Made by a program: the position numbers and the translations under genes. A stretch of DNA of 64,000 bases from a virus (taxonomy: Duplodnaviria > Caudoviricetes): positions 128,001 through 192,000 of IMG/VR virus record IMGVR_UViG_3300002092_001784; one strand, written 5' to 3'. The notes under the pieces were generated by a model, which saw only the letters and a list, made by a program, of their open reading frames with translations, was not told the DNA's origin and ran no database searches. Numbering within the stretch: position 1 is the stretch's first letter; every line of letters begins with the position of its first letter. Positions 7,723 through 43,674 of the stretch are shown in pieces.

Positions 7723-7941
7723 ATGACATATACTGACAGATATGCGTTTTTAGTTAAATTCCTTAAAGATAACGATGCTCATACTAAATGGCAACACAAT
7801 CGTAACGTTAAGGATATTTTGGAAATAATAACAGATGAACCACAACATGCTTTCACAGCCGCCTTTAAGTGGTGGGATACTCCAGAAGGACATGATTATT
7901 GGGAAGCACTGTATTGGAAATGGATGGGTAATTTTAAGTAA
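7723..7941 (+). CDS. AFxWxxTPEG-family paralogue 1
   Basis: AFKWWDTPEGHDYW. Confidence 0.85.
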   Translation: MTYTDRYAFLVKFLKDNDAHTKWQHNRNVKDILEIITDEPQHAFTAAFKWWDTPEGHDYWEALYWKWMGNFK

Positions 7942-7944
7942 GAT

Positions 7945-8205
7945 ATGACGATAGACGAACGACAATTTATGTTTGAACAATTTCTTCAGAGTAAGGATTG
8001 TTATAATGTATTCATACAGAACTGTAAGAAGTATAAGCAGTCGTATGATAACGATATGAAATCATTGGTAATGTCAAGCTTACCATTCAGTTGTATTGAC
8101 CATGCTTTCACATGGAAAGCTACCGATGAAGGACATGATTATTGGAATGATTTGGCAAGAGAATGGTCAGAAAAATTTAAGGTATATGACAATAGAACAA
8201 CGTAA
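7945..8205 (+). CDS. AFxWxxTPEG-family paralogue 2
   Basis: AFTWKATDEGHDYW. Confidence 0.85.
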   Translation: MTIDERQFMFEQFLQSKDCYNVFIQNCKKYKQSYDNDMKSLVMSSLPFSCIDHAFTWKATDEGHDYWNDLAREWSEKFKVYDNRTT

Positions 8206-8437
8206 CGAGTTTGTCATCAATTGGTTACGACAAGAGGGGTTATATGATAGCTACCGTACCGCCTTTAGAGCCAGATGTGCTAAGGACAATGTAGGAGTGG
8301 ATAAAAAGTGGAATGATCTGATGTCGATGGATGAACCATCCGATATATTCTCAGCCGCATTTGCATTTGGTGATACGCCAGACGGGCATCTGATTTGGCC
8401 GGATGCTGCAATTCGATTCTGTAAACAATTTAAGTAG
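8186..8437 (+). CDS. AFxWxxTPEG-family paralogue 3
   Basis: Start reassigned to MTIEQR at 8186; AFAFGDTPDGHLIW. Confidence 0.85.
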   Translation: MTIEQRNEFVINWLRQEGLYDSYRTAFRARCAKDNVGVDKKWNDLMSMDEPSDIFSAAFAFGDTPDGHLIWPDAAIRFCKQFK

Positions 8438-8443
8438 AACACA

Positions 8444-8701
8444 ATGACGATAGAACAACGTAAAAAGTTTTTAATAGAGTTCCTAACCAACAGAGGGGCT
8501 TACACCGGATTTGTGGCAAACATAATAGCACATCATCCTAATGTGATTGTTGGTAGTTTTATTATAGATTTAGTAACTAGCAATAATCCACAGATCGCCA
8601 TAGGTGGTGCATTTCCGTGGGATGACTCACCCGAAGGTCCGACGTATTGGTCGGTATTAAGAGAAGAATTTGTAAATCAATTTAATCCGATAGAAGAATG
8701 A
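8444..8701 (+). CDS. AFxWxxTPEG-family paralogue 4
   Basis: AFPWDDSPEGPTYW. Confidence 0.85.
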   Translation: MTIEQRKKFLIEFLTNRGAYTGFVANIIAHHPNVIVGSFIIDLVTSNNPQIAIGGAFPWDDSPEGPTYWSVLREEFVNQFNPIEE

Positions 8702-8937
8702 CACCAGAACAACGTAAATTAGTATTGTATCGATTCCTGTCCGACCGTGATGCATTGGGGCATTGGAAACAGAATGTGGAGAATAACACAGACAGTATGT
8801 GGCAAAGTGCAGAATCAGCATTTGAGGATAACAATCATCAGAATTGTATAGGTAATGTATTTGGGTGGACTCAAACACCACAAGGTTCGAAGTATTGGGA
8901 AGGACTATATAATGAATGGCATCGTATGTTTGTGTAA
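8698..8937 (+). CDS. AFxWxxTPEG-family paralogue 5
   Basis: VFGWTQTPQGSKYW. Confidence 0.85.
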   Translation: MTPEQRKLVLYRFLSDRDALGHWKQNVENNTDSMWQSAESAFEDNNHQNCIGNVFGWTQTPQGSKYWEGLYNEWHRMFV

Positions 8938-9123
8938 GATTTAACAATTACTTAACATTGAATAGTTGGAATGTCCGAGCTTTTGTTGTATCTTTAGGTA
9001 TTGAGTTTTGAGAGTTACTAATTAAAAATTCGGTATTATGGGTTTAGTTGTGTTGATGTTCGCTGAGTTGTGCCTGTTAGGGCTGGTTACGTTTTTAGTG
9101 TGTTACCTAAGTGGATATGAGAT

Positions 9124-9390
9124 ATGGAAGAATTAGAAATATTTGATAAGGATGGGAAGGCATTGCAACTGGCCGATCTTATATACAGTTTTATTAAAGA
9201 TAAAGCAGAAGAAAATAAAATTGATATAGAAAATGTCTATGTTGGTGTAGATGTTGGATTCCCAAAAGGTAAGACACCTATTTGGATACATACAGTCGAA
9301 AGCGTTGATAACGGCTATGATGCAATAGAATTACACAATTTTGGTAAACCGTATATAGTTTCAAATTCATTAATACACAATAAGTTATGA
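9124..9390 (+). CDS. Hypothetical protein interrupting the paralogue array
   Basis: Unrelated to the array family; N-terminal ALQLADLIYS. Confidence 0.7.
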   Translation: MEELEIFDKDGKALQLADLIYSFIKDKAEENKIDIENVYVGVDVGFPKGKTPIWIHTVESVDNGYDAIELHNFGKPYIVSNSLIHNKL

Positions 9391-9632
9391 GAAAGATAAG
9401 TAATGAGAAGTTCTTAGTATGGCTAAACACACAGGGTGTATATGAACAGTTTTGCAGCAACTGCAAGCTATTGATAGCTGGTGGTACTGATTCTGTTGAA
9501 TGGTATATGAATACGCTACTTGAAGATTTCCGTAATCCAATCATGCCCGCTTTCGATTGGGATTCCTCAGTTGAGGGGTATGATCATTGGTGTGTTATTT
9601 CAGATAACTATGATGCCGAATTTAATCATTAA
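9387..9632 (+). CDS. AFxWxxTPEG-family paralogue 6
   Basis: AFDWDSSVEGYDHW. Confidence 0.85.
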   Translation: MRKISNEKFLVWLNTQGVYEQFCSNCKLLIAGGTDSVEWYMNTLLEDFRNPIMPAFDWDSSVEGYDHWCVISDNYDAEFNH

Positions 9633-9638
9633 TATAGT

Positions 9639-9878
9639 ATGACATATACTGAAAGACATACGTTTTTACTTAAATTCCTTCTCGATAACGATGCTCTTAC
9701 TCAATGGATATACAACCGTACACACATACCACTAAATGGTAAGTTTACAGAACTGTTGGATATTTTAGGCGATAATCCTAGTGATGCAATTTCAATGGCA
9801 TTTGACTGGTCACATACGGTAGAAGGGCATCAATATTGGGGAGAACTACATAGAAAATGGATGAGTAAATTTAAGTAA
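9639..9878 (+). CDS. AFxWxxTPEG-family paralogue 7
   Basis: AFDWSHTVEGHQYW; close to paralogue 1. Confidence 0.85.
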   Translation: MTYTERHTFLLKFLLDNDALTQWIYNRTHIPLNGKFTELLDILGDNPSDAISMAFDWSHTVEGHQYWGELHRKWMSKFK

Positions 9879-9881
9879 GCG

Positions 9882-10139
9882 ATGACAGCACAACAACAAC
9901 GACGATTGGAGATATTAAACAGTTTTTTGGACGAGCATAATTGTAAAGCCAAATTTTTTAAGTATCGTGATGACTACTATACTGGACTTAATTCGTATCA
10001 ATCATATTCGAGTATGGTAACTACCCATAATCCCGCTAATGTGTTTAGTACGGCATTTAGTTGGGCGGATACACCGGAAGGTACACAATTTTGGTCAGAT
10101 TTGGCAGACGAGTTCAAATCTAAATTTATAATACAATGA
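9882..10139 (+). CDS. AFxWxxTPEG-family paralogue 8
   Basis: AFSWADTPEGTQFW. Confidence 0.85.
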   Translation: MTAQQQRRLEILNSFLDEHNCKAKFFKYRDDYYTGLNSYQSYSSMVTTHNPANVFSTAFSWADTPEGTQFWSDLADEFKSKFIIQ

Positions 10140-10384
10140 CACTAGAAGAAAGAAAGCAGTACCTAATCAAGTTCCTATGTGATATGGGGTGCTATGGCCA
10201 ATTCCTATATAACTGTAAATACCATAAGCAAAAATCGTTAGATAACGATTTTGAATCGCTCGTTATGGTAAAGTATCCGTCAGATGCCATTAGCCATGCC
10301 TTTATATGGGGGGATACGGCAGAGGGACATTCATATTGGCAGGACTTGGCAGAGGAGTTTGAATCTAAATTTATACTACAATGA
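10136..10384 (+). CDS. AFxWxxTPEG-family paralogue 9
   Basis: AFIWGDTAEGHSYW. Confidence 0.85.
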   Translation: MTLEERKQYLIKFLCDMGCYGQFLYNCKYHKQKSLDNDFESLVMVKYPSDAISHAFIWGDTAEGHSYWQDLAEEFESKFILQ

Positions 10385-10626
10385 CGGTAGAGCAACGAAA
10401 AGAATATCTAATCAAGTTCCTATGTGATATGGGATGTTATGACCAATTCCTATATAACTGTAAACATCATAAGCAAGGATTCGATAACGATTTGGAATCG
10501 CTGGCGATGGTAGAGTATCCGTACAATGTCATTAGCCGTGCTTTCACATGGATGGATACGGTGGAGGGGCGTCGATATTGGGAAGCATTGGCAAATGAGT
10601 TCAAATCTAAATTTATAACAGAATGA
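10381..10626 (+). CDS. AFxWxxTPEG-family paralogue 10
   Basis: AFTWMDTVEGRRYW; recent duplicate of paralogue 9. Confidence 0.85.
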   Translation: MTVEQRKEYLIKFLCDMGCYDQFLYNCKHHKQGFDNDLESLAMVEYPYNVISRAFTWMDTVEGRRYWEALANEFKSKFITE

Positions 10627-10874
10627 CACCGGAACAACGTAAGGCCTTCACCATTAGATGGTTGAAGCAAGAGTTAGCCTATGATAAGTTTGAAGACAAT
10701 ATTAAAAGTTATTGTATACGCACTAATAGGCCAATCGATGAAGCGTGGGATGCGCTGATGGCAATGAATGAACCACGGGAAGTGTTTATGTCCGCATTTG
10801 TATTTATCAGCACCCCAGAGGGACAGGTCTATTGGGAAGATATAGCAATTCGATTTAGTAACCTATTCAAATAG
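10623..10874 (+). CDS. AFxWxxTPEG-family paralogue 11
   Basis: AFVFISTPEGQVYW; close to paralogue 3. Confidence 0.85.
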   Translation: MTPEQRKAFTIRWLKQELAYDKFEDNIKSYCIRTNRPIDEAWDALMAMNEPREVFMSAFVFISTPEGQVYWEDIAIRFSNLFK

Positions 10875-10879
10875 AACAT

Positions 10880-11116
10880 ATGACACCTGAACAACGAAGA
10901 CAACTTTTTTATAACTTTTTAATTGAAAACGATGCGTGGACCGCATGGTGGAACAATGTAAGTAAAGCCTCCACTATATGGTCAAAACCGGAAACTGTAT
11001 TTGACCAAAATGATTATAATAAATGTATATTTGATATGTTCGGACTAAAGACAACACCGGAAGGTGAAGATTATTGGTCTGATTTGGGACGAGCATGGAC
11101 GGATAAATTTAAGTAA
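10880..11116 (+). CDS. AFxWxxTPEG-family paralogue 12
   Basis: MFGLKTTPEGEDYW; close to paralogue 5. Confidence 0.85.
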   Translation: MTPEQRRQLFYNFLIENDAWTAWWNNVSKASTIWSKPETVFDQNDYNKCIFDMFGLKTTPEGEDYWSDLGRAWTDKFK

Positions 11117-11119
11117 GAT

Positions 11120-11386
11120 ATGACAGTAGAAGAAAGAGTTAAATACCTAAAGGAGTACCTGTATGACAACAGATTGTTGGACAGCTATTACGCTAATCTC
11201 ATAAAGGATAAAGAGTATTTGCACAACACACAAACAATAGATGAAAGACTCCATACCCTATGTAATACAGATACCCCAAGATCATGCTTCGTTAGGGCAT
11301 TCAGTTGGGAACGTTCGCCCGAAGGCTTTAGTTTCTGGTTTAAGGTATCACAGGCCTTCGCAGAACGTCTAATCTATACACGATAG
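11120..11386 (+). CDS. AFxWxxTPEG-family paralogue 13
   Basis: AFSWERSPEGFSFW. Confidence 0.85.
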   Translation: MTVEERVKYLKEYLYDNRLLDSYYANLIKDKEYLHNTQTIDERLHTLCNTDTPRSCFVRAFSWERSPEGFSFWFKVSQAFAERLIYTR

Positions 11387-11460
11387 CTAGAACTTCTAAC
11401 TTTTTAGAATCCTATAATCCTATAACTTCTACACTAGCTAAATTGGAAAAAGCTAAAAAC

Positions 11461-11720
11461 GGTGCCTGACATTTTGTCAGGTGCCGGGCACTGGTTTCTT
11501 GGAACTGGAAAAAGTTCGAGCGGGCGGGGGGAGCGCTGACTCGTTTCCGCCCCGAGCCCGGTTTTTCTCCCTAGGAGAAAGACATACTAACTTCCAATGA
11601 TTGGGACGAGCCTATCATTTGATAGTTGTCATATTGATAGTTGTCATATTGATATGTTTGTTTGGATAGCGTTTTTATAGATAGCTCGGCCCCAATCGTT
11701 ACAATCGTTACAATCGTACT
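11461..11720. repeat. Non-coding island of GC-rich hairpins, palindromes and short tandem repeats
   Basis: CCTGACA-TTT-TGTCAGG; GTGCCGGGCAC; CGGGC...GCCCG stem 11521-11560; TTTCTCC-CTA-GGAGAAA; 15-bp tandem at 11621; 9-bp tandem at 11693. Confidence 0.8.
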
Positions 11721-11783
11721 GAAATTAAATAAAATTATTCAACTTCGATATTTATATAAACATTAACCATTTAACATACTATT

Positions 11784-12080
11784 ATGAAACTGAAAGAATT
11801 GATGAACGAATCCCCTAAACCAAAGAAGGCGATTCTGAACGAAGGCCAAACCGTTAAGCAAATTGAAGCAACGATGTTGGATTACCTAACCGATGAGAAG
11901 GCCATTGAAGCGTGTTTGAGAAAAACCTATAAGAATATTGAATCCATAAAGTTCACATCACGTGGTACTGAATTTGAGGTTTATATCACATTTAAGGATG
12001 GGTTTACACAAAGTAATGATGGTAGTGGTGCCTGTGTGTTGACAATCAATTTACAATCCCGTAGAAGATATACAAACTAA
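11784..12080 (+). CDS. Leader-bearing protein 1 (MKLKELMNE), putative internal virion protein
   Basis: Shared N-terminal leader; ATATTTAT upstream. Confidence 0.7.
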   Translation: MKLKELMNESPKPKKAILNEGQTVKQIEATMLDYLTDEKAIEACLRKTYKNIESIKFTSRGTEFEVYITFKDGFTQSNDGSGACVLTINLQSRRRYTN

Positions 12081-12084
12081 ACGG

Positions 12085-12885
12085 ATGATAAAATTAAAAT
12101 CTCTATTGAACGAAGGATACCTTTGGGACTCGAAGTCACCTCTAATTGGTGGGCTTATTAAAGATATGCAACCTATGATAGATGATATAGTTGCGGCAGC
12201 AGAACGTAAGGCAGAAGAAAAGGGTATACGATTTACTAAGTTCGATAGAGAGTTTATTGAGTTAACCCTACGGTTTGATCTTCTAAAGTCATTGGGGGCA
12301 TATACGAAACCGGGTGATAAAATCGTATCGAAATCGGTATCTAAATCACATAAGGGTTCTCTAACCATAGATGCGGTAATCCAACGTGATGGCGAACGTT
12401 ATCCGTTTCATACGGAAGTGATTTACGCCGGAGGACATAGTATACAAGTTCTACACTTTAGATACCTAACACATACGAAGTTACCAAAGAGTACGAGTAA
12501 TCCGGAAGCCGATAAGGTGAAGGCGGAGTTACAACGGTTATCGAAGGGACAGAAGATTCAAAAGGATATTGATACGAATGGTAGACGAATACAAAATTTG
12601 GAAGCTAAAACAGCAGAGTTAACTGCTCAAACGGATGATGAGGCATTGGCGGCCGATAAGTATTGGAACGATGATTATTCAAAGTTGGATTGGGATGAAA
12701 TAGTACGGCGTGGTGCAGATAAAAACTACAAAGGGCGTAGTGAATTTGAAACGAGTAAGGAAGAATACCGGCAATCAATTTTGGGGCAACGGAAACGGAC
12801 GATTGCCAGTTACACCGATACCATTAAATCAATTAAAAAGGATACTGCCAAACTACAATCCAAATTGGATGCGTTGGCTAATTAA
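12085..12885 (+). CDS. Leader-bearing protein 2 (MIKLKSLLNE)
   Basis: Shared leader; coiled-coil-like C-terminus. Confidence 0.75.
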   Translation: MIKLKSLLNEGYLWDSKSPLIGGLIKDMQPMIDDIVAAAERKAEEKGIRFTKFDREFIELTLRFDLLKSLGAYTKPGDKIVSKSVSKSHKGSLTIDAVIQRDGERYPFHTEVIYAGGHSIQVLHFRYLTHTKLPKSTSNPEADKVKAELQRLSKGQKIQKDIDTNGRRIQNLEAKTAELTAQTDDEALAADKYWNDDYSKLDWDEIVRRGADKNYKGRSEFETSKEEYRQSILGQRKRTIASYTDTIKSIKKDTAKLQSKLDALAN

Positions 12886-12902
12886 ATAACAAAACTAAAG
12901 AT

Positions 12903-13745
12903 ATGATAAAGTTAAAGAGCTTATTAGAAGAAAATAGTTTAGTAACCGAAGCAAGTTTTTGGACTAAATTAGCTCGTAAGTGGAATTGGGCGCAAGATAT
13001 GATGATGTGGGATAAAGAGATGACATCTGGTAAAAATACCGTTGGTCGTGCAGTACCCGCCCAAATGAAAAAATGGGTTACGGGGTTGAGTAACGATAAA
13101 TTACATTCGACGTATGAGGAAGTCAATGACCCTCGCAGTATTTCTTTTCATTATTTAGCAAAGAAAAATTCACCCGAAGAGTTTTTTAAGAAACTCGTTA
13201 ACCTTGAGGTAGAGAAGCGTGGTGGTAATGAAAAAATAAGTGGTGGAAAGTTAACCAAATATTATGTGGTTTCGCATGGAAAACGATATGAGATATCCGC
13301 ATATGGTTTGCAAGATGCGATTAAACAGGCGCAGGATAAATACGGATTATCTAAAAACTTAAATCCACAAGAACTTGGACATGAAGTAGAAAAAGCTAGT
13401 GAAGTTGACAAGTGGGATGAACTTAGATTTTTCACACTAAGGTATAAGGGTAAGGATGTGGAGGTTAAGGCAAAGAATGCATATGATGCTAGGGAGTTGG
13501 CCAATAAAACATTCCACGCACCGGATAATAAATTTGATGAAATTAAAATTATTTGGGCTCAAACACCTATGGCATCGCATTCCAACGGAAAAAAACACGG
13601 AAAAAAACATAATGATGATTCCTATGTGAATCTGAAGTCCAAATCAGGCTATGGTGGTAGTGGTTATAGTGGAGATGATGACGACGATTTTGACGGATTT
13701 GGCGGCGGTTCGTTCGGTGGCGGTGGAGCCGGTGGTGACTGGTAA
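12903..13745 (+). CDS. Leader-bearing protein 3 (MIKLKSLLEE) with Gly-rich FGGG...W tail
   Basis: Shared leader; ends FGGGSFGGGGAGGDW. Confidence 0.75.
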   Translation: MIKLKSLLEENSLVTEASFWTKLARKWNWAQDMMMWDKEMTSGKNTVGRAVPAQMKKWVTGLSNDKLHSTYEEVNDPRSISFHYLAKKNSPEEFFKKLVNLEVEKRGGNEKISGGKLTKYYVVSHGKRYEISAYGLQDAIKQAQDKYGLSKNLNPQELGHEVEKASEVDKWDELRFFTLRYKGKDVEVKAKNAYDARELANKTFHAPDNKFDEIKIIWAQTPMASHSNGKKHGKKHNDDSYVNLKSKSGYGGSGYSGDDDDDFDGFGGGSFGGGGAGGDW

Positions 13746-13768
13746 ATTTATAAAACAAAACTAAAGAT

Positions 13769-14095
13769 ATGATAAAGTTAAAAGGATTATTAACCGAAGA
13801 ACTAACTAAATTTCCCGGTGAAATGGAAGTTAAAAAGGTGTTAAGTGGATACGAACAATATTCACATGGACCTAATGAAATTGGGTTTTTTGGCAAGGGT
13901 GCTTCCGTAAAAGTGTTGGATGCTATTCTAAAAAAATATTATGACCGTAGTGGTTCAAACCCGCAGAAAGTTATGGGATTCCTTAAATGGGGATACCAAG
14001 CGCCAGCATCACCGTATCATTCGTATTGGGTATCGTTTGATTCATCGGATGGCAAAACAGTTCGTAATTTTTCTGCAAGTATAATAAAAGAATAA
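13769..14095 (+). CDS. Leader-bearing protein 4 (MIKLKGLLTE)
   Basis: Shared leader. Confidence 0.75.
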   Translation: MIKLKGLLTEELTKFPGEMEVKKVLSGYEQYSHGPNEIGFFGKGASVKVLDAILKKYYDRSGSNPQKVMGFLKWGYQAPASPYHSYWVSFDSSDGKTVRNFSASIIKE

Positions 14096-14099
14096 GACT

Positions 14100-14507
14100 A
14101 TGATAAAGTTAAGTGGATTATTAAACGAAGAACGTTGGGAGGCCAAAGATGGTCGTATCTCATTGAACGGTAAGCCGATAATGGATTATGAGTTTGATCA
14201 TGGTTCGGATTCGTTTTGGGTTGCTGACCCGAAGAAAAAGCACGGACAGTTATCATTCGATACAAAGGATGAAATGATTGCCTTTGCAAAGAAATCCGGT
14301 ATCCGTACTTGGAAAAGTAGTGTACACGAAGGAAGTGATGACCAAAAAGAAAAGGTCACACAACTACTTATTAAGTGGGGTAACAATCGTAACGATGTAA
14401 AGGATATGGTAGATAAACACTACGATTATGTGTGTAAGCATTATTCAAATGCAAGCCCAAAGATTAAAGCAGAAGTTATCCGAACGATATATTCAAAAGG
14501 AAAGTAA
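14100..14507 (+). CDS. Leader-bearing protein 5 (MIKLSGLLNE)
   Basis: Shared leader. Confidence 0.75.
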   Translation: MIKLSGLLNEERWEAKDGRISLNGKPIMDYEFDHGSDSFWVADPKKKHGQLSFDTKDEMIAFAKKSGIRTWKSSVHEGSDDQKEKVTQLLIKWGNNRNDVKDMVDKHYDYVCKHYSNASPKIKAEVIRTIYSKGK

Positions 14508-14508
14508 G

Positions 14509-14775
14509 ATGATAAAGCTAAAAGAATTACTTGATGAAGATACAAATTATCCGTATATAAATCAACATACTAAAGCTATAAGCAACGCTGATAAACGCCG
14601 TATACCATCAACAGTGCATGCCAACTATAATATAGTGGTAGATAAAAATGGTATATATTATGCGTATACTAAAAACGGGTTAATAACAGGGGGTTCTATC
14701 AATTCCGATTTGGAGTTATTAATTAAAAACCTGCTTAAAAAGATACAACGTAATCGTTCATTAAAATATTATTAG
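14509..14775 (+). CDS. Leader-bearing protein 6 (MIKLKELLDE)
   Basis: Start reassigned to ATG 14509. Confidence 0.75.
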   Translation: MIKLKELLDEDTNYPYINQHTKAISNADKRRIPSTVHANYNIVVDKNGIYYAYTKNGLITGGSINSDLELLIKNLLKKIQRNRSLKYY

Positions 14776-14776
14776 A

Positions 14777-15151
14777 ATGATAAAGCTAAAAGAATTACTA
14801 ACTGAAAAATGTTGGAAGGGATATACTCAATACGGTATGAAGAAAAAGGGCGGTAAGGAAGTACCAAACTGCATACCCGTAAAAGAGATTACCGAAGAAA
14901 TCAAAGATGGCGACGTATTTGGAAATTGGACGGTAGTTCATTTCCGACCATCCTATGATTCTCAACGAATATTGAGAGGTGGTGAGTTTACCATTCAGAA
15001 CCGAGTTGGAAGGCTTGGTGATAAAGATGGTGACCTACTCAAAGTAGAATACGATGGTACAGTATGGCGCACCTCATACCGTAACATTACATATGAAGGT
15101 ACAACACCCGAAGAGTTAATGAGAAAATTATCAGAACACGATACGTTATAA
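14777..15151 (+). CDS. Leader-bearing protein 7 (MIKLKELLTE)
   Basis: Shared leader followed by CWKGY..GMKKKGGKEVPNC motif. Confidence 0.75.
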   Translation: MIKLKELLTEKCWKGYTQYGMKKKGGKEVPNCIPVKEITEEIKDGDVFGNWTVVHFRPSYDSQRILRGGEFTIQNRVGRLGDKDGDLLKVEYDGTVWRTSYRNITYEGTTPEELMRKLSEHDTL

Positions 15152-21094: not shown

Positions 21095-21164
21095 TTCTCA
21101 TTAGTTCAATTGGAAGAACCCCGGTAGGAACTGGGTGATGTAGGTTCGAGTCCTACATGGGAAT
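21095..21164 (+). ncRNA. tRNA-like element with collapsed anticodon loop
   Basis: TTCTCAT/ATGGGAA, GTTC-AATTGGAA-GAAC, CCCGGT-AGGA-ACTGGG, GTAGG-TTCGAGT-CCTAC. Confidence 0.6.
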
Positions 21165-21277
21165 CATAACATAGGTGGGTAGGTAGGATGCACAGAATGT
21201 ACTGTTAAACTAATGTGTAGGGTATCGCTTGTATGATAATAACAGTAGAGGTGTACAGTAACCTATGTTTTTTATTT

Positions 21278-24537: not shown

Positions 24538-25218
24538 ATGATTATGGAAAGAGATTATGTACAATATGTAGTAGTTAGTAGTGTAGATAAAAGTGATGGT
24601 TGGTTGAGTATTTCAACTGAAAGTGGTACCGGATTTGGATTGGACACCAAATATGGTGTAGTGCCGGAAGTGGGTGATACCATTACATTATATACCGTAG
24701 GTAGTTCATTTGGAACTGTGCGTGGAATGGATTTGAATGGTGTTCCTATTTTTTACAAAACGGATACCGATTTGGAGAATGCACGAACCGAATGGTTACA
24801 AAAGGAGGAAGAGCGAAAACAAAAAGCATTTGCTGATTCCAAATCAACTTTGGATGCTCAATACGAAGCCCTTCCGACTGTTTTTAAGAAAAGAATAGAC
24901 CGGTTTAGGAATAACAATAAACGGTTTAGGGTTGATTATCAATCGTATGAATTGTTTTGTTGTGAACAGGGTATTCTTATTGCCAACAAATGTAAAACAC
25001 CAGAAGAAGTTGATGCCTTTTCCAAAAAAGAATATAAAGAACAAAAAGAACAAATTGCAGAATTATCCGAAGACCATAGCGGAAACACATTTGGGTGTTC
25101 AGTACAATTGGCATATTGGTATTTGAAAGAACCAAATATGGTTTATAAACTACACGGTGCATTGACTCCGTTGGTTGGTTCGGATGCATACGGTGATTTT
25201 CCACTACCGGAAGATTGA
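24538..25218 (+). CDS. Hypothetical protein
   Basis: 226-aa ORF. Confidence 0.75.
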   Translation: MIMERDYVQYVVVSSVDKSDGWLSISTESGTGFGLDTKYGVVPEVGDTITLYTVGSSFGTVRGMDLNGVPIFYKTDTDLENARTEWLQKEEERKQKAFADSKSTLDAQYEALPTVFKKRIDRFRNNNKRFRVDYQSYELFCCEQGILIANKCKTPEEVDAFSKKEYKEQKEQIAELSEDHSGNTFGCSVQLAYWYLKEPNMVYKLHGALTPLVGSDAYGDFPLPED

Positions 25219-37426: not shown

Positions 37427-37783
37427 AAATATATAAGTTATGGAAACTGAAATGTTAGGTATTGAATTAGACAACAACGAAGTATTAAACGCATATATGG
37501 ATATGTGGCAATTAATTTCCGATAAGGAACGAAGTAAGGCTATGGATTTGGCCGTTAGATTACGGAGAGCAGATGAACTTATAAAAACAATTTGGAAATT
37601 ATAAATTATGAAAGATTTTTTAATACAATGGTTGGGTTACATTATACTATTTGTGGCAGTTGGTTACAAACGTAAAGAAGATAGTGAGTTAAAAATATTT
37701 TCAGCAGATTGGTGGGTTGTAACATTATTGGTTGGAACTGGTGTTGCTATTTTAGTACATTACTCTAAATAAAATTATAAAAA

Positions 37784-43039: not shown

Positions 43040-43351
43040 ATGAATAAAATAGCACAAATATTTAATGCTTGGAAAATCTCATATAACCCAACCGATGAAC
43101 AATCCGAATTGGCAGCTGCCCGTATGGAAATATGCGACAGATGTGAATATAAAACCCAAGCTACTATATATGTACCATATACACATTGTAACCAATGCTA
43201 CTGTAAATTAGATAAAAAGGTATTCTCAACCGATACAGAATATACGCCCGATACAAAATATCAAACATGTCCGAAAGGATTTTGGGCAGATGTAGAGAGG
43301 ACATGGAGTTTGAAAAACAGTAAGAAGAAATACGATAGTTTGAAAAAGTAA
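43040..43351 (+). CDS. Cys-rich hypothetical protein
   Basis: RMEICDRC...CNQCYC...CPKGFW. Confidence 0.7.
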   Translation: MNKIAQIFNAWKISYNPTDEQSELAAARMEICDRCEYKTQATIYVPYTHCNQCYCKLDKKVFSTDTEYTPDTKYQTCPKGFWADVERTWSLKNSKKKYDSLKK

Positions 43352-43362
43352 TATTTATTAGC

Positions 43363-43674
43363 ATGATACGATTAACCGAACTACTGAATGTTAACTTTAA
43401 TAAAGTAAATTGGACTAAACAGTCTGAAAACGATAAGGCTATTATCTATAATATAATGATTAATGGACGTACCGGTGGTCGTATTATTTACGATAAAGCT
43501 CGTAAAATCTACATAGCTACAATGGAAAACTCAGATAATACGTTTCAACCTAAAAGTTTTAAGTCTAAAAAAGATGCAATTACTTATATGAGTTCATTTA
43601 GTGTGTTCTCAAATCCAATTACGGTTATGGGTGGTAGTGAAGAACCATCATATCAATCATATGCAGGTACTTGA
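43363..43674 (+). CDS. Hypothetical protein with MIRLTELL leader variant
   Basis: Leader similar to 11.8-15.2 kb genes; ATATTTAT just upstream. Confidence 0.7.
   Translation: MIRLTELLNVNFNKVNWTKQSENDKAIIYNIMINGRTGGRIIYDKARKIYIATMENSDNTFQPKSFKSKKDAITYMSSFSVFSNPITVMGGSEEPSYQSYAGT

Follow-up and report, generated by a model that had tools for sequence, protein, structure and literature searches.

The 64,000-nucleotide (nt) window analysed here (bases 128001–192000 of a 266,153-bp IMG/VR virus record, with a G+C content of about 33%) carries an array of seven consecutive genes whose products open with the same short leader, of the type MIKLKxLLxE, and then continue into unrelated bodies. We propose that this leader is probably the lineage's own T4-style capsid-targeting sequence (CTS), set at the front of cargo proteins that would be packaged in the phage head and ejected into the host. 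A capsid-targeting leader on modular cargo had been suggested in a preliminary description of this DNA and is supported by our analysis: the genome encodes an S77 prohead protease and the capsid protein gp23, the leader (hereafter the tag) ends in L-x-E, and it heads at least 74 body families. All seven of the consecutive tagged open reading frames (ORFs) described earlier are present on the + strand between 11784 and 15151:

11784–12080, + strand: cargo gene 1, 98 amino acids (aa), nine-residue leader MKLKELMNE
12085–12885, + strand: cargo gene 2, 266 aa, leader MIKLKSLLNE; conserved family
12903–13745, + strand: cargo gene 3, 280 aa, leader MIKLKSLLEE; orphan with a Gly/Asp-rich C-terminal tail
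13769–14095, + strand: cargo gene 4, 108 aa, leader MIKLKGLLTE
14100–14507, + strand: cargo gene 5, 135 aa, leader MIKLSGLLNE
14509–14775, + strand: cargo gene 6, 88 aa, leader MIKLKELLDE; start set at the leader ATG
14777–15151, + strand: cargo gene 7, 124 aa, leader MIKLKELLTE, followed by the motif CW..G.K.KGG..VPNC

The genes are separated by gaps of 1–23 nt. For gene 6, the mechanical ORF begins at an in-frame ATG at 14428, and the leader ATG at 14509 lies one base past the stop of gene 5. The seven proteins are small and mostly basic (88–280 aa, body pI 7.9–9.8), and their bodies are unrelated, as had been stated: past residue 10, no pairwise similarity was found with BLASTP (best E 0.5). 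Every leader has LLxE or LMxE at residues 7–10, fitting a hydrophobic (L/I)-x-Glu motif. A chance origin of this shared leader can be ruled out, because the strict tag pattern occurs in the 266-kb genome only at the array ORF starts and at one further ORF (genome position 37517, MIKLKRLLKE), and because the reversed control pattern gave no matches in 20 related contigs. Adjacent to the ORF at 37517, at genome position 37289, is an 11-residue form of the tag, MIKLKSLLIKE.

To find the tag elsewhere, IMG/VR was scanned with a fully degenerate back-translation; the counts given here are lower bounds. Nearly all matches fall at ORF starts. The 124 distinct tagged proteins listed have 121 distinct 30-nt leaders that encode a constant peptide, which indicates that selection acts on the peptide and not on the DNA. 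Leu in the tags is written with all six of its codons, and Phe, which the pattern also allows, accounts for about 3% of the YTN codons. At tag positions 6 and 9 the residue is polar but not fixed, and positions 11–14 show no conservation; the conserved unit therefore ends exactly at Glu10.

Within the array, the leader DNA had been described as conserved upstream of 12903 and 13769, and the two regions indeed share 29 identical bases (15 upstream bases plus ATGATAAAGTTAAA):

12888–12916, + strand: 29-nt stretch (upstream region and leader start), identical to 13754–13782
13754–13782, + strand: second copy of the 29-nt stretch, identical to 12888–12916

The further proposal that the leader DNA serves as a recombination handle for swapping cargo is weaker: this one pair is identical over 29 nt, but the other leaders differ at synonymous sites and share about 14 nt or less. 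Cargo shuffling through leader DNA is possible in this phage. In T4, the tandem genes ipII and ipIII have a leader coding MKTYQEFIAE that is identical at 30 of 30 nt, and shuffling through leader DNA was reportedly proposed for the T-even ip loci by Repoila et al. in 1994.

The same tag is found on many cargoes. IMG/VR holds at least 132 tagged ORFs in at least 74 body families, 55 of which are singletons among those listed. Pfam domains behind the tag include Zeta_toxin/AAA_33 (two proteins), ART-PolyVal (in L122), Phage_lysozyme, MPTase-PolyVal and another putative metallopeptidase. The motif CW..G.K.KGG..VPNC of gene 7, a small Cys-containing motif, also stands behind this leader in L021, L101 and other loci. 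Arrays are also seen elsewhere: four tagged genes stand side by side in the cultured Microcystis phage Mel-JY01 (60276–62762), and an uncultured 484-kb phage has an array of tag variants. Flavobacterium phage immuto carries the form MIKLIDLLTE at 24977. The genomic contexts differ. In the genome studied here, the array is far from the head module and beside a methyltransferase gene; in L075, five tagged genes lie in the head module, between the protease gene and a scaffold-like gene upstream of gp23, and the tagged genes of G003 are likewise between the protease and scaffold genes; in L133–L139 the neighbours are unrelated genes. The array locus itself is variable, because a related 270-kb phage has the homologous methyltransferase gene without an adjoining array. 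The sole consistent partner of the tagged genes is the S77 protease of the same genome, encoded in 14 of the 20 tag-carrying contigs, with five of the other six being fragments; two-way linkage to one nearby enzyme gene was not found. As a separate observation, three of the tagged Mel-JY01 proteins (L129, 60276–62790; 216, 60 and 220 aa) are paralogues with the motif ISDRVWH(L/V)T, and that array also contains an unannotated 18-codon remnant starting MIKLKQLLNE, which suggests recent duplication and decay.

Conversely, one cargo can be found behind many tags. The gene 2 protein has 29 homologues, and its body, retrieved through the conserved core and not through the tag, is present at 66 IMG/VR loci. 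In this lineage the body starts with MIKLKDLLNE or MIRLKDLLSE, and in other lineages with MNKFKTYGQFLNE or MSKIKTYSQFLNE, the former of which resembles the T4 sequence MKTYQEFIAE. In L190 it starts with MKTVKLFEQFVNE, within an array of at least ten genes that all start MK(K/H)(V/I)KLFExFxxE, and intermediate-looking tags (MNKFKTYGQFLNE and MKKVKLFEQFVNE) occur on this body family in other S77-encoding lineages. A few gene 2 relatives are untagged, including that of Tenacibaculum phage pT24, whose leaderless homologue was also the only cultured relative found for the other-tag lineages. An S77-like protease was present in all five of the other-tag genomes tested. Homologues of the gene 4 body carry MPKLKSLLTE, MKRFSETLFE or MTISKYIKIIE, each with [LI]-x-E at residue 10–11. 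Behind MIKLSDLLNE or MKLKDLLNE, the N-domain of gene 5 continues into different C-domains; MKLKDLLNE is a nine-residue variant, as in gene 1, that recurs on gene 5 homologues. In P0038 and P0039, this N-domain has the body family of genome gene 37517 as its fusion partner.

Because the gene 2, 4 and 5 bodies carry different tags, and T4 uses MKTYQEFIAE, the tag appears from these comparisons to track the phage lineage and not the cargo, which fits the prediction of an address read by lineage-specific assembly machinery. The same cargo body has MIKLKxLLxE in one lineage and MKKVKLFEQFxNE or MNKFKTYGQFLNE in others. A broader idea, to which we give an even chance, is that each T4-like lineage has its own 'zip codes', short N-terminal tags that evolve in step with its scaffold and protease. 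Separately, in contigs of five other-tag lineages (G021–G025, from L151, L166, L169, L147 and L190, with MKKVKLFEQF or MNKFKTYGQF tags), S77 lies in frames of 600–650 aa in four of the five contigs; the S77 frame of G023 is only 240 aa and ends at the contig end. These lengths suggest that the protease is fused to another large domain in the lineages concerned.

The phage has the head genes that such a tag would call for. Its genome encodes a T4-type major capsid protein gp23 (PF07068, 251 bits) and a gp21-type prohead protease (Peptidase_S77, PF03420, 94 bits), in which, as in nine relatives, the motifs GELDHP and GISSRG (His and Ser) are invariant and an [IL]-x-E lies close to the protein's own N-terminus. 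The capsid protein is 54% identical to that of the uncultured 484-kb phage, about 50% identical to those of Flavobacterium phage immuto and Microcystis phage Mel-JY01, and 40% identical to that of Rhodothermus phage RM378; T4 gp23 gives a local match only. On the basis of these families, identities and the local T4 match, the phage is classed as a distant T4-like myovirus. No near-identical DNA to the window was found in the phage collection.

Early [LI]xE sites extend to the head proteins themselves. In the phage's own genome, 16, 12 and 10 proteins have an [LI]xE ending at residues 10, 11 and 12, respectively, compared with 4.3 expected per position. Among them are the protease, the putative scaffold and the capsid protein, along with four more ORFs of the head module; the motif thus turned up on the scaffold and capsid precursors, where the preliminary description had pointed. 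The putative scaffold, so labelled for its position upstream of gp23, its acidity and its homologue in L075, begins MASSKLLKEA in both genomes. PHROG annotation returned no matches for the head-module accessory ORFs or for the putative scaffold. Two further leaders ending in [LI]-x-E were noticed in this genome. One, MK(K/T)QNSYLIMEG, is on two ORFs directly after the protease gene (genome 250488–251407); the other, of about 20 residues, MKL(H/K)E(F/I)K.I(L/I)REE.R.V(L/I)(R/K)E, is on three adjacent ORFs (genome 30756–32370) that sit upstream of two large unknown proteins.

The bodies of the cargo proteins contain few potential cut sites of the same type. The seven array bodies have four internal [LI]xE sites compared with 7.6 expected, and the two largest proteins have none (2.7 were expected in the gene 2 body); in gene 1, a second L-x-E (LNE) ends at residue 20. 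Across tagged bodies, the observed/expected ratio for [LI]xE is 1.00 (confidence interval (CI) 0.85–1.15), compared with 1.40 (CI 1.34–1.46; permutation p ~2e-4) for other ORFs of 70–350 aa from the same loci, and VxE, LxD and IxD are not depleted in the tagged bodies. Because [LI]xE is under-represented in this way, it is suggestive that cargo bodies are exposed to the protease and have been selected to survive it. The AlphaFold 2 model of the gene 2 product (predicted local distance difference test score 86) has a confidently folded body that combines helices with a four-stranded sheet and a long coiled coil, and the tag is a floppy, low-confidence appendage (residues 1–13 score below 50); the model had no fold match in the PDB or the Atlas. 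When the S77 protease was modelled in complex with the N-terminal 45 residues of the gene 2 product, the score, obtained without controls, was 0.00 and weighs neither way.

Upstream of the array we found a candidate phage promoter:

11748–11757, + strand: promoter-like motif ATATTTATAT, 36 nt upstream of cargo gene 1

The motif is strand-biased across the genome, with 29 copies on the + strand and 3 on the −; one copy lies 24 nt before genome gene 37517. With at most one mismatch, it lies 12–66 nt upstream of 40 genes, among them those for the tail sheath, baseplate hub, head–tail adaptor and tail fibre. A scan of the array for sigma-70-type promoters found 12 sites, fewer than the 17.6 in shuffled sequences. 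Further examples of ATATTTATAT, besides that at window position 11748, are at genome positions 14295, 17468 and 245588, and its reverse complement contains the T4 late-promoter box TATAAATA.

By analogy with T4, we infer a route of docking, cleavage, retention and ejection for the tagged proteins. The seven genes would be transcribed as one tightly packed unit from the promoter-like motif that they have in common with the tail genes. During prohead assembly, the short amphipathic N-terminal tag would dock each protein to the scaffolding core. The gp21-type (S77) protease would then cut after Glu10, at L-x-E, freeing a mature, mostly basic protein inside the shell. There it would remain alongside the DNA until infection, when it would be ejected into the host. 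In the host, the seven cargo proteins would, by the same analogy, act in anti-defence or host take-over.

Several points weigh against this proposal. No function is recognisable in the seven cargo proteins, which have no Pfam match at E<=0.01. Beyond Met1, a hydrophobic residue at −3 and the terminal Glu, the tag has nothing in common with the T4 CTS MKTYQEFIAE, and homology of the 10-mer to the T4 CTS cannot be shown, because so little literal sequence is common and only ten residues are available. One tagged contig classed as 'complete', G004, gave no S77 match. The depletion of [LI]xE is moderate (LxE ranks 9th and IxE 12th lowest of 237 residue pairs) and could come in part from a differing secondary-structure (helical) content of the tagged bodies. 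The late timing of ATATTTATAT stays presumptive, because the motif is also found ahead of genes with non-structural products, such as GIY-YIG endonucleases and a nucleotidyltransferase. Finally, a search of papers found no virion proteomics for this phage or for its tagged relative Mel-JY01.

The most serious alternative is that the tag does target the prohead core and is cut, but that the proteins are assembly components that are degraded or expelled at maturation. It may apply to those conserved tagged families that sit within head modules. In its favour, relatives have tagged genes flanked by the protease and scaffold genes, a tagged family with the motif HFLEIISTYG is conserved beside the protease in many contigs and in the phage's own genome, and the putative scaffold itself has a tag-like start. 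As an account of the array, however, we consider it unlikely. The seven genes are far from the head module and are poorly conserved or orphans that differ between relatives, and their tagged relatives include an ADP-ribosyltransferase (ART), a zeta-like kinase and a lysozyme, which have no obvious assembly role. Their scarcity of internal [LI]xE sites also differs from the T4 core proteins, which are cut into short fragments (PMC5694885).

Alternatively, the tag could serve another process: it might be recognised by some other enzyme, direct localisation or degradation, or work at the RNA level in translation initiation or regulation. Common N-terminal tags on unrelated phage proteins can indeed have other partners, and the start region is conserved as DNA in two of the genes. 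We nevertheless hold this to be distinctly improbable. A constant peptide whose synonymous sites vary highly speaks against an RNA or DNA element, and a Sec or lipoprotein signal would be longer and less polar than the tag. The arrays sit in differing contexts, with no further conserved gene in company, and the prohead protease is specifically indicated by the terminal L-x-E, its position at residue 10–12 and its presence on head proteins. Least probable of all is that the seven genes are old tandem paralogues that kept an N-terminus while their bodies diverged beyond recognition, a reading to which the tandem arrangement and a nearby unrelated family of tandem paralogues (which shows that this genome amplifies genes) lend some colour, but which is opposed by the disparate lengths without detectable similarity, by the occurrence of the gene 2, 4 and 5 bodies elsewhere with different tags or none, and by the spread of the tag over at least 74 body families with unrelated Pfam domains.

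Searches with the cargo proteins themselves found little. PHROGs gave the seven proteins weak or unknown-function matches only. Gene 3 returned only itself from a search of 5.8 billion proteins and had no Pfam or PHROG match, and the Atlas yielded no usable match for gene 3 or gene 7.

The variant leader that had been reported at 43363 is present, but it lacks the terminal Glu:

43363–43674, + strand: 103 aa, degenerate leader MIRLTELLNV, without Glu10

At roughly the corresponding position in the related 270-kb phage there is a gene that starts MIRLKSIMNE, with the Glu intact. A small Cys-rich ORF precedes the gene at 43363, both lying within window 43040–43674; in L212 (10934–13428), a homologue of this ORF is about 1.7 kb upstream of the MIRLKSIMNE gene, with one ORF between.

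Other features surround the array. Directly upstream (window 7723–11386, genome 135723–139386) is the tandem family mentioned above, with at least 7–9 small paralogous ORFs of 72–88 aa that start MT(P/V/I)EQRK... or MTYT(D/E)R... and have a conserved PEG..YW motif near the C-terminus. Between this family and the array, within window 11455–11720, there is a G+C-rich, strongly structured stretch of 136 nt (minimum free energy −61.8 kcal/mol, z −4.3) that has no Rfam match and could be a terminator block or an undescribed RNA; it is followed by the short direct repeats catattgatagttgt (two copies) and caatcgttac (three copies). An Rfam scan of 9–23 kb found nothing besides tRNAs. A cluster of five tRNA genes (including two for Glu, one for Asp and one for Ala) contains one, at window 21095–21165, with an irregular anticodon loop ('gg' in ARAGORN) and an Rfam tRNA score of 42 bits.

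The closest parallel is with the internal proteins (IPs) of T4 and other T-even phages. T4 gp21 cuts after the Glu of an (L/I)-x-Glu motif (PMC9026906, PMC5694885) and removes propeptides of 10–20 residues; its sites in Alt include ITE-6 and LTE-619 (PMC5694885). The first ten residues of IPIII suffice for packaging (PMC5694885, PMC9026906), and diverse T-even internal proteins are united only by the CTS (PMC3012670 and PMC9026906, both citing Repoila et al. 1994). Like IPI, IPII and IPIII, the array proteins are small, mostly basic and unrelated and have in common an N-terminal tag of about ten residues with a hydrophobic-x-Glu end, tandem genes, partial conservation of leader DNA, a gp21-family protease and gp23. 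They differ in the tag itself (MIKLKxLLxE compared with MKTYQEFIAE), in belonging to a phage that is only distantly related, in a far larger cargo repertoire (at least 74 families), in the presence of relatives' tagged genes inside the head module, and in being known from sequence alone. Proteins united by a CTS, and the engineering of CTS fusions, are already established for T-even phages and T4; the idea of a programmable packaging tag is accordingly a weaker addition to the preliminary description, being existing practice with the T4 CTS (PMC9026906, PMC3012670). A literature search found no phage paper describing the MIKLKxLLxE tag.

Three other systems bear comparison. T4 Alt is a packaged, gp21-processed ADP-ribosyltransferase, and the tagged IMG/VR protein of L122 has an ART-PolyVal domain, whereas none of the seven array proteins has an ART or other recognisable domain. 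In phiKZ-like giant phages (201phi2-1 and SPN3US), ejection or inner-body proteins are also cleaved after Glu by a distant gp21 homologue, and diverged paralogues can have the same N-terminal 15-mer (PMC5694885). Cleavage there is at S/A/G-x-E and propeptides often exceed 100 residues, whereas here a short T4-type L-x-E tag is found together with gp23. Polyvalent proteins of phages and conjugative elements, which are giant multidomain fusions, carry effector domains that are thought to be delivered with the incoming DNA. Their ART-PolyVal and MPTase-PolyVal domains are found behind the tag in relatives, but here each domain is a separate small tagged protein.

If the proposal is correct, a ten-residue motif would identify proteins that are delivered into cells before any phage gene is expressed, in a large uncultured group of aquatic T4-like phages whose relatives infect Flavobacterium, Tenacibaculum and Microcystis. 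Many of the families in this delivered pool would be unknown, and anti-defence and host take-over proteins would probably be found among them. The swapping of tags on single body families offers a natural experiment on how tags co-evolve with scaffold and protease. Should the zip-code idea also prove true, the whole injected proteome of uncultured T4-like phages could become readable from sequence alone; its enzyme cargo would include zeta-toxin-like kinases, ADP-ribosyltransferases and metallopeptidases, and the gene 2 family would represent an internal head protein that is widely conserved but had gone unrecognised.

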